A stretch of DNA of 64,000 nucleotides, taken from the NCBI GenBank assembly GCA_910583875.1, contig CAJTXT010000005.1, positions 72,104-136,103 of the forward strand. The letters are read 5' to 3'. How positions within the stretch are numbered: the first letter of the stretch is position 1; every line of letters starts with the position of its first letter. This document shows, piece by piece, positions 18,961 through 19,264 of the stretch. The notes under the pieces were generated by a model. That model did not search any database, was not told the DNA's origin, and saw only the letters and a list, made by a program, of their open reading frames with translations. A program made the position numbers and the translations under genes. Source of the stretch: an uncultured Vampirovibrio sp. (GTDB taxonomy: Bacteria > Cyanobacteriota > Vampirovibrionia > Gastranaerophilales > Gastranaerophilaceae).

Positions 18961-19061
18961 AAAAATAAATGAATAAAAGTTTTTTGTTTCAAGCACCATT
19001 GTTTTTAGGAATCGCGAAAACACAGGTGCTTGAAACAAAAAACTTTTATTCATTTATTTTT
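18961..19061 (+). repeat. family-2 repeat
   Basis: Perfect 37-bp arms (18961-18997 / 19025-19061). 27-nt loop 'attgtttttaggaatcgcgaaaacaca'. Starts 4 nt after a stop codon. Confidence 0.9.
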
Positions 19062-19084
19062 TATAATTAGTTTTAGTTAGACAT

Positions 19085-19167
19085 AAAAACAGAAAAATTT
19101 CATTTCCGACATCTGTGTTTTCACGATACCTAAAAACAATGGTGCAAAATTTTATTATTTGTTTTTT
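19085..19167 (-). repeat. family-2 repeat, degenerate right arm
   Basis: 'cagaaaaatttcatttccgacatctgtgttttcacgatacctaaaaacaatggtgc' is a tandem near-duplicate of the left half of the next copy. Confidence 0.7.
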
Positions 19168-19264
19168 AAAGATAAAAGCAGAAAAATTTCATTTTCGGCA
19201 CCTGTGTTTTCGCGATTCCTAAAAACAATGGTGCCAAAAATAAAATTTTTCTGCTTTTATCTTT
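19168..19264 (-). repeat. family-2 repeat
   Basis: Arms match at 33/35 positions. Core 'cacctgtgttttcgcgattcctaaaaacaatggtg'. Ends 4 nt before the stop codon of the 19268 gene. Confidence 0.88.

Follow-up and report, generated by a model that had tools for sequence, protein, structure and literature searches.

The window analysed here is a stretch of 64,000 nucleotides (nt) from an uncultured Vampirovibrio sp. (GenBank assembly GCA_910583875.1, contig CAJTXT010000005.1, positions 72,104 to 136,103) and matches the metagenome-assembled genome (MAG) GCA_949927535.1. In four of its intergenic regions, close to housekeeping genes including recA and proS, lie long hairpins that share an apex; an earlier note on this DNA had read them at 12134, 12229, 18961, 19085, 19168, 46986, 63089 and 63211. 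Judged from their sequences, they are members of a lineage-restricted hairpin repeat family in one subclade of Candidatus Gastranaerophilales, a non-photosynthetic group from animal guts that is related to the cyanobacteria; the best RecA homologues bear this name. The family is previously undescribed, as no description of it was found in the literature searched or in Rfam. The coordinates of all eight claimed copies stand, but only seven of these are full elements and the copy at 19085 is a degenerate, partial one. The copies are listed below, with scores (bits) from a covariance model built from 42 copies.

12109..12221, minus strand: element with the symmetric apical stem CCATTGATTT...AAATCAATGG and the loop TAAGAACCGTG (51 bits)
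12226..12346, plus strand: full element, standard core at 12271-12301 (102 bits)
18958..19064, plus strand: full element, core at 18996-19026, arms 38/38 perfect (89 bits)
19077..19149, minus strand: degenerate partial copy, core at 19112-19142 with 3 mismatches, 88% alike over 73 nt to the 19168 copy
19165..19267, minus strand: full element, core at 19201-19231, abutting the stop codon (19268-19270) of a gene for a 432-aa protein
46983..47081, plus strand: element with the family stem CATTGTTTT...AAAACACAG and another loop, CGCGTATGCAG (59 bits)
63084..63215, plus strand: full element, core at 63135-63165, with a 3x2 internal loop GAA/GA (121 bits)
63204..63318, minus strand: full element, core at 63246-63276, beside the nrnA stop codon (63322-63324) (120 bits)

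The 29-nt core pattern ATTGWTTTTAGGAAYCGCGAAAWYACAGG matched the window six times at ≤3 mismatches, against 0.00 matches expected in shuffles, and a looser apical-stem pattern, CATTGNTTT-N5-30-AAANNACAG with any loop, matched seven times against 0.02 expected. The covariance model recovered the seven full elements and nothing else, missing only the 19085 copy, which is a tandem duplicate of one arm and the core of the 19168 copy and does not form the long hairpin. RNAfold energies for the six full standard-core hairpins tested ranged from -57 to -78 kcal/mol. An assembly artefact was ruled out by the presence of the same elements in independent NCBI, ENA and Logan assemblies. Arm pairing was at least as good as the counts reported previously, at 18961 (38/38), at 63211 (35/35), at 63089 (outer 37/37, beyond the 3x2 internal loop and one G-T pair) and at 12229, where 35 perfect pairs lie beyond two G-T pairs and one G-A pair is also found close to the core. 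At 46986, where 31/31 had been counted, the arms are 45 nt long and 93% complementary. In the 12109..12221 copy, the 26-nt arms are 96% complementary and pairing is looser further out.

Elements in the window adjoin or overlap stop codons. Position 18958 immediately follows the stop codon (18955-18957) of a DUF2628 gene, and position 19267 immediately precedes the stop codon of the 432-aa gene. Position 46983 is itself part of a stop codon, since the arm opens with that of a response-regulator gene, with proS downstream of the element. Position 12346 lies inside a stop codon, the arms of that element reaching the end of the SNF2-helicase gene (stop codon at 12344-12346).

The core pattern was absent from 185,579 GTDB representative genomes in two pattern scans, the match at locus L007 being a chance one with no hairpin, and no core match was found in viral contigs, plasmids or phages. 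A pattern scan of metagenomes returned 31 loci with ~35 standard copies from JAAGKN01 (GCA_011262095.1), a fecal metagenome of the deermouse Peromyscus leucopus (PMC7446861); its matches from other sources (L023, L029 and L041) were due to chance. With variant loops included, JAAGKN01 contains ~60 distinct copies over ~0.3 Mb of loci, so that this related genome adds ~60 copies to those of the window. In the fetched stretches of relatives with 95-98% identical RecA (L042-L051), and of outgroups defined by NrnA identity of 84-87% (L056 and L063) or by 85% identity in the 432-aa protein (L066), neither the pattern nor the covariance model found any copy, which indicates that the family is confined to a narrow subclade. 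No Rfam 15 family fits: the sole hit in the window above the gathering score is a tRNA, and a permissive scan returned generic long-hairpin miRNA models only, far under threshold. Several contigs (Logan unitigs and JAAGKN01 contig 293; L002-L005, L055, L064 and L065) stop within the core or immediately short of it. Short-read assemblies are thus broken up by the family, and copy numbers in MAGs are probably underestimates.

The anatomy of the family was derived from 35 JAAGKN01 copies aligned on the core and from 42 folded copies. The full hairpin is about 100-130 nt long with arms of 35-50 bp, and an apical module of ~50 nt is conserved. The apical stem, TTTYGAAGT-CC-AT-TGWTTT / AAAWCA-CA-GG-ACGARAA, is imperfect and has three conserved asymmetries. 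CC-AT-TGWTTT pairs with AAAWCA-CA-GG, leaving a 2x2 mismatch of AT opposite CA (33/35 copies), and its W position covaries (A-U in 28, U-A in 13). The inner arms TTTYGAAGT/ACGARAA pair in most copies via a 3x2 internal loop, GAA/GA, their Y and R positions covary, and a T-G pair is common 8-9 nt from the core. Three interchangeable loops are carried on this one stem: TAGGWAYCGCG (n=43), a mini-hairpin CTTGCTYY-nnn-RRAGCAA (n ~10) and TACGTATGTAA (n ~6). Non-standard loops are found in the 46986 copy of the window and in a strain variant after recA (L002). The shared core claimed previously is upheld for the stem CCATTGWTTT/AAAWCACAGG and the inner arms, which are invariant, but not for the loop, which varies across the ~60 copies. 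Nor is a loop common to all copies of the window, as had been proposed, because those at 46986 and 12134 carry different ones. Two known motifs were considered and rejected for the apex: a K-turn at the GAA/GA loop, because the 3-nt bulge on the required strand is absent and several window copies are without the loop, and a CsrA-type GGA loop, because most JAAGKN01 copies have GGT.

Sequence conservation in the 35-copy alignment peaks at the centre and fades beyond ~9 nt from the core, in agreement with the earlier description of the family as the reverse of a normal miniature inverted-repeat transposable element (MITE), with the most conserved sequence at the centre and decay toward the ends. 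Mean arm length is ~45 nt and the longest perfect runs are mostly 30-45 bp. Across the arms, 1582 Watson-Crick pairs were tallied, with 40 G-T pairs, 6 A-C pairs, 21 other mismatches and 22 indels. Over the family as a whole, changes on both sides occur in 40 of 48 pairs, and 92.4% of cells are paired, compared with 65% when shuffled and ~50% when partners are slid. In all hairpins the 5' arm is rich in A and the 3' arm in T, with G/C enriched at 15-18 and 21-23 nt from the core and an A/T tract at 24-28 nt. Arm composition is also fixed relative to the core throughout the family, with GGG at 16-18 nt, G at 22-23 nt and an A-tract at 24-28 nt. The 3' arm mirrors this order (C-rich at 15-17 and 21-22, then T at 23-28), its T-tract being paired with the A-tract. 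Identity between the arms of different loci is 43% in register and 36% when shifted. The outer arms had been described as unique to each locus, and most are indeed diverged, but this register signal and the fixed composition mean that they are not wholly unrelated, so "locus-specific" arms would mainly be diverged arms. Within the window, long arms are confined to core-bearing hairpins, those without a core having stems of 10-19 bp; terminator stems in relatives are ≤17 bp.

How the arms change was followed in three elements with orthologues, comprising ~16 differences; JAAGKN01 contig 293 is syntenic with the window. As a neutral yardstick, four-fold sites in three orthologous genes differ by 40%, 47% and 35%. 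The elements at the nrnA stop (63204..63318, orthologous to copies in L020 and L064) and at the stop of the 432-aa gene (19165..19267, orthologous to a copy in contig 293, L065) occur in both genomes and consequently predate the split. The very recent formation offered previously as an explanation of the perfect arms is thus contradicted, since both comparable loci bear the element in both genomes despite 35-47% four-fold divergence. The cores differ at 1/31 and 3/31 positions, two of the latter three forming a compensated pair, while the arms differ at ~25-30% of alignable positions. Approximately 15 of the 16 arm differences, one indel among them, are mirrored in the partner arm. Between the 63211 copy and L020, 5/5 are mirrored, including A-T/T-A swaps and one T-A to G-C change; between the same copy and L064, 2/2 are mirrored, and in the core stem a G-C pair has become A-T by compensation. 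Between the 19168 copy and L065 there are ~8 changes, including an indel of 1-2 nt, and all are mirrored except one C-G to T-G change. Mirroring that extends to transversion swaps and an indel, at this level of arm divergence, favors the other explanation in the earlier note, an active process that homogenises the arms.

The apex can be turned around between homologous copies. At the second element of the nrnA locus (63084..63215) the arms are homologous (AAGAAAAATGCACAAGGGGTATTTGTTTCGAAGT in the window and AAGAAAATAGCGAAAGGAAAGTTGTTTCGAAGT in L064) and the apex is in the opposite orientation; apex orientation also differs within a pair of copies in L012. These two L012 copies lie 1.4 kb apart and have identical 32-nt arms in unrelated flanks, which indicates that the whole hairpin was copied. 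Partly similar arms were also seen in the pairs L017/L018 and L011/L033. The L012 pair is the one dispersed arm-sharing pair among ~60 copies, and copying is consequently rare or old. Its shared arms, with the faint family-wide similarity of inner arms, argue against the proposal that arms are made from the target at each insertion.

Inverted copying of flanking DNA, also raised in the earlier note, does account for at least some outer arms. The L020 palindrome starts CATAAAAT..., in which TAA is the nrnA stop codon, and takes in the CATAA of the nrnA end and stop, from which it follows that the gene end was copied into its distal arm, ...ATTTTATG. At the nrnA locus of the window, the left outer arm AAAAACAAACAACAAAA complements a right flank that resembles the outgroup sequence TTTTTGTTTTCTA. 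At the nrnA end, the outgroups L056 and L063 carry AAAACAGCCTC-loop-GAGGCTGTTTT, a terminator hairpin, and the outer stem of the element there reads AAACAGC...GCTGTTT in L020 and AAACAGT...ACTGTTT in the window, one compensated change apart. A palindrome already present at an empty site, which the earlier note regarded as a possible refutation, was thus found in part, as a short outgroup terminator whose stem base recurs in the L020 outer stem. This is suggestive of insertion into the apex of a pre-existing terminator at the nrnA locus. In L052 (NrnA 97%) the left arm alone is present, without a partner arm. Because the full element is found in the window and also in L020, which is more distant, parsimony makes L052 a secondary deletion. 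The samples SRR10090093 and SRR10097268 encode one and the same NrnA protein; in one of them the nrnA 3' end has the left arm alone, and in the other the contig breaks at the core. We conclude that whole-hairpin copying and templated correction would explain most of the pattern, with terminator insertion and flank copying adding to the outer arms.

In crude open reading frame (ORF) calls at all loci, 20 elements lie between convergent genes, 12 lie between tandem genes (beside the end of the upstream gene) and seven appear to be in divergent contexts. Core orientation relative to the adjacent gene is approximately random (~8 sense and ~10 antisense). At the recA, nrnA and 432-aa gene ends, relatives have a short bidirectional terminator instead, e.g., AAAAAAAGAGCC-tttaaaa-GGCTCTTTTTT. 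Given this position at gene ends, and a T-tract that comes after a G/C-rich segment in each 3' arm, the elements would most likely function in bidirectional termination or as hairpins at 3' ends. Between a gene for a 125-aa zinc-ribbon protein and the 63089 element there is a small canonical terminator (63069-63093; GACCG-tcaaaatgg-CGGTC, then T7), which the upstream gene thus reaches before the element. The stems of its orthologues vary among the window, L020 and L052 yet remain paired.

We consider, with moderate confidence, that these elements are drifting hairpins in a terminator-like position, with a selected apex and with arms re-templated by replication template switching. The unit would be the whole hairpin of ~100-120 nt, in which the ~50-nt apical module is under purifying selection and the long arms below it drift at a near-neutral rate. 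One arm would repeatedly template the other (quasi-palindrome correction), maintaining ~97% complementarity, and template switching would occasionally flip the apex. The palindrome may grow outward by flank copying until coding sequence is met, which would explain why arms end at stop codons. At one or more loci the apex of a short bidirectional terminator appears to have given way to the element, and new copies could arise through a putative transposase or through ectopic hairpin-to-hairpin template switching. Near-neutral change combined with ~97% pairing, transversion swaps and a mirrored indel would be hard to achieve by point mutation and selection but is expected from arm-to-arm templating, and we infer that template switching is the mechanism. 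Replication template switching at inverted repeats has been described to homogenise arms, invert spacers and lengthen arms (PMC8604942, PMC5941160, PMC7202029, PMC3820800), and counterparts of all three are seen here. The described cases are mostly single short repeats (arms of 5-20 bp) or mutational hotspots, whereas the present case would involve a whole family with arms of 35-50 bp and a selected asymmetric apex that escapes correction.

Several observations weigh against this interpretation. The orthologue evidence consists of three elements and ~16 differences only, and the likeness to an ancestral terminator is an A/T-rich match of 8-9 nt at one locus. Seven sites appear divergent in the crude gene calls, a consensus terminator scan flagged none of the long hairpins (their loops exceed its 8-nt limit), and the small terminator preceding the 63089 element makes that element dispensable for termination at this site. 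A T-G pair within the arm (ATTTTATTT/AAATGAAAT) is retained in both the 19168 copy and its L065 orthologue, and G-T pairs exceed A-C pairs on the core-sense strand (12 vs 4 beyond position 12, and 20 vs 0 at positions 8-9). Blind arm copying would erase such pairs, and the G-T excess and the kept T-G pair therefore indicate that some strand-specific selection also acts on a folded strand, either RNA or single-stranded DNA. Likewise, the AT/CA mismatch survives in 33/35 copies although template switching should erase it. Its persistence and that of the GAA/GA loop despite templating point to selection on an asymmetric structure (RNA or single-stranded DNA) or on an asymmetric duplex site.

A first alternative is a structured RNA, and the earlier note had raised long-hairpin RNAs. 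The elements would then be stabilising or processing hairpins in 3' untranslated regions, or small-RNA precursors, with arms kept paired by selection through compensatory mutation and an apex that binds a protein. Massive covariation, the G-T excess over A-C on the core-sense strand, a G-U-type pair conserved between orthologues, a C-G to T-G intermediate and the location of elements directly after stop codons are all consistent with this, as are the conserved asymmetric internal loops of the apex, in which GAA/GA could form tandem sheared G-A pairs. Against it are an approximately random core orientation and an apex inverted between orthologues. The transversion swaps (3/5 changes in 63211 vs L020 and one in 19168 vs L065) cannot pass via G-U, an indel is mirrored exactly, and point mutation with selection would hardly give ~97% pairing in a 45-bp stem whose arms have diverged by 25-30% against a neutral 35-47%. 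Rfam matches are to generic hairpins only. We retain the RNA explanation at a lower weight and regard it as unlikely. Another proposal, which we rate as similarly improbable, is that the apical module is a selfish "terminator parasite" copied onto the apices of terminators without a transposase of its own. The module would home, or be copied by ectopic template switching, and host replication would grow and polish the palindrome. This would explain the outward decay of conservation (through variable copy tracts), the stem base kept at nrnA and the missing transposase.

Less probable still is a transposase-driven element, REP/RAYT-like (a repetitive extragenic palindromic [REP] sequence with its REP-associated tyrosine transposase [RAYT]) or derived from IS200/IS605, in which the apex is the recognition hairpin and the arms come from an inverted target duplication. 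The conserved imperfect hairpin with its fixed mismatches may resemble those read by HUH/Y1 enzymes. In addition, CGTC stands on the 5' side of the antisense hairpin in most JAAGKN01 copies (REPs tagged with CGTC are described in PMC3733652), L052 retains one arm without its partner, and outer arms copy flanks. In contrast, CGTC is missing from several window copies, the arms of the L012 pair travel with the core, and parsimony attributes L052 to deletion. The co-varying transposase gene that the earlier note suggested looking for did not appear: a phmmer search of 1429 ORFs in 0.5 Mb around ~60 copies, a weak test with an approximate query, found no IS200-like TnpA, and no multi-copy transposase-like ORF was found. 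The small recurrent neighbouring ORFs considered as candidate transposases proved to be XRE-type helix-turn-helix (HTH) regulators, the only recurrent neighbours. No direct repeats indicative of target-site duplication flank the L012 pair or the nrnA-locus copies. We assign the lowest probability, that of a very unlikely event, to a short module inserted into the loops of long palindromic terminators that already existed, with ancestral and unhomogenised arms. The outgroup terminator stem base AAAACAGC/GCTGTTTT is kept in the element at the same spot, and terminator hairpins of relatives reach 17 bp. Against this, core-less stems in the window and in relatives are 10-19 bp long and core-bearing ones 35-50 bp, orthologous arms change with mirrored differences, outer arms include a copied stop codon, and arm composition is fixed relative to the core. 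A role of the arms as trans-acting guides also found no support, as only low-complexity 13-mers recur elsewhere in the window.

The family shares features with several known kinds of repeat. REPs are extragenic sequences of 20-40 bp with a GTAG or CGTC tag, for which roles in termination and mRNA stabilisation have been proposed (PMC3733652). As with REPs and their composites (bacterial interspersed mosaic elements [BIMEs] and REPINs), the present elements are extragenic imperfect palindromes in tens of copies, mostly downstream of convergent or co-directional ORFs and often in adjacent inverted pairs. REPs are conserved over their whole 20-40 bp, whereas here conservation is limited to the ~50-nt apex of a 100-130-nt hairpin whose arms differ by locus. 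The tag is also not constant: T-CGTC-CTGTG is found on the antisense strand in most JAAGKN01 copies and in the two 63-kb window copies, but the tetranucleotide, which is partly paired, is GCAC, GTCA, ACGA or GGAA elsewhere, and the approximate TnpA query over 0.5 Mb found no RAYT. The elements resemble MITEs, enterobacterial repetitive intergenic consensus (ERIC) sequences and Correia-type repeats in being non-coding, dispersed and hairpin-forming, ~100-150 nt long and copyable as a whole unit (the L012 pair). Unlike MITEs, which have conserved terminal inverted repeats and a target-site duplication, they show the lowest conservation at their ends, and no duplication was seen. Integron attC sites are likewise hairpins at 3' gene ends with structure conserved above sequence and with fixed unpaired bases. 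However, attC sites are conserved at the stem base (R and L boxes) and variable in the apex, the opposite of the present family, and neither an integrase nor a cassette array was seen here. Intrinsic bidirectional terminators have the same gene-end sites, A-rich 5' and T-rich 3' arms and a G/C segment followed by a T-tract, but the stems of this family are 3-5 times longer and share a conserved apex that ordinary terminators lack.

We infer that the behaviour of the arms is a family-scale case of a known process, template switching. If so, inverted-repeat arms would here undergo concerted evolution in nature and across a whole family, with dozens of palindromes of 35-50 bp drifting near-neutrally yet remaining paired. 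Since the asymmetric apex resists correction, it must be selected, and the contrast between apex and arms would separate the effects of replication on palindromes from what selection keeps. The family may also provide a bacterial system in which to measure how fast arms are corrected, apices inverted and palindromes lengthened. For the discovery of RNA motifs it suggests caution, because covariation at 40/48 pairs can stem from DNA-level templating rather than from RNA function. If the terminator parasite proposed above were confirmed, it would be a bacterial repeat that spreads in a new way. The family adds an undescribed repeat to Gastranaerophilales, a poorly known gut lineage, where it breaks short-read assemblies and coincides with a synteny breakpoint. 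That breakpoint is the 3' end of recA (12025-12343 and 57081-59432), and both this family and a second one, described below, are found at the junction. In relatives with 96-98% identical RecA (L042 and L050), genes for an A24 prepilin peptidase, a sigma-70 factor and a deaminase come after recA. The window has these genes 45 kb from recA, which there faces the SNF2-helicase gene. L002, with an identical RecA protein, has yet another element directly 3' of recA.

Other repeats of the window are as follows.

12042-12085, 18196-18297, 20762-20805, 40642-40685, 48915-48979, 53417-53460, 61097-61220, 61683-61804 and 62383-62426: copies of a second, unrelated REP-like family
20631-20849, 48852-49040, 53356-53594 and 61623-61835: larger repeats, 80-107 nt long and 72-89% alike, occurring in either orientation

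The REP-like family has a hairpin unit of ~30 nt, TGTCA-yyy-CTGAACTTGTTTCAG-rrr-TCTTAC, and covariation is seen in the triplet of its stem (ATG/CAT, CCC/GGG and TTC/GAA). Its copies are often inverted doublets, e.g., 48915-48979, and one is terminator-like (12057-12085, minus strand). The larger repeats contain REP-like hairpins and an A/T-rich segment (GAAATTATATAGAAATTTACACTAAATCT...) and may be composite mobile or promoter-bearing units. Three paralogous XRE-type HTH genes (110-124 aa; 60282-61629) are flanked by REP-like repeats. Approximately 10 XRE paralogues (35-50% identical) are scattered in JAAGKN01 loci (L008, L009, L012, L014, L031 and L037), several of them beside hairpin elements. 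Close to its 5' end, the DUF2628-family ORF has a run of ten G residues (18497-18506), in a genome of 29% G+C. The run might serve slippage or phase variation, or it might be a site sensitive to assembly. Finally, the cumulative GC skew has its minimum at ~29000-31000, and genes lie mostly on the minus strand to the left and mostly on the plus strand to the right, a combination of skew minimum and orientation switch as would be seen at a replication origin.

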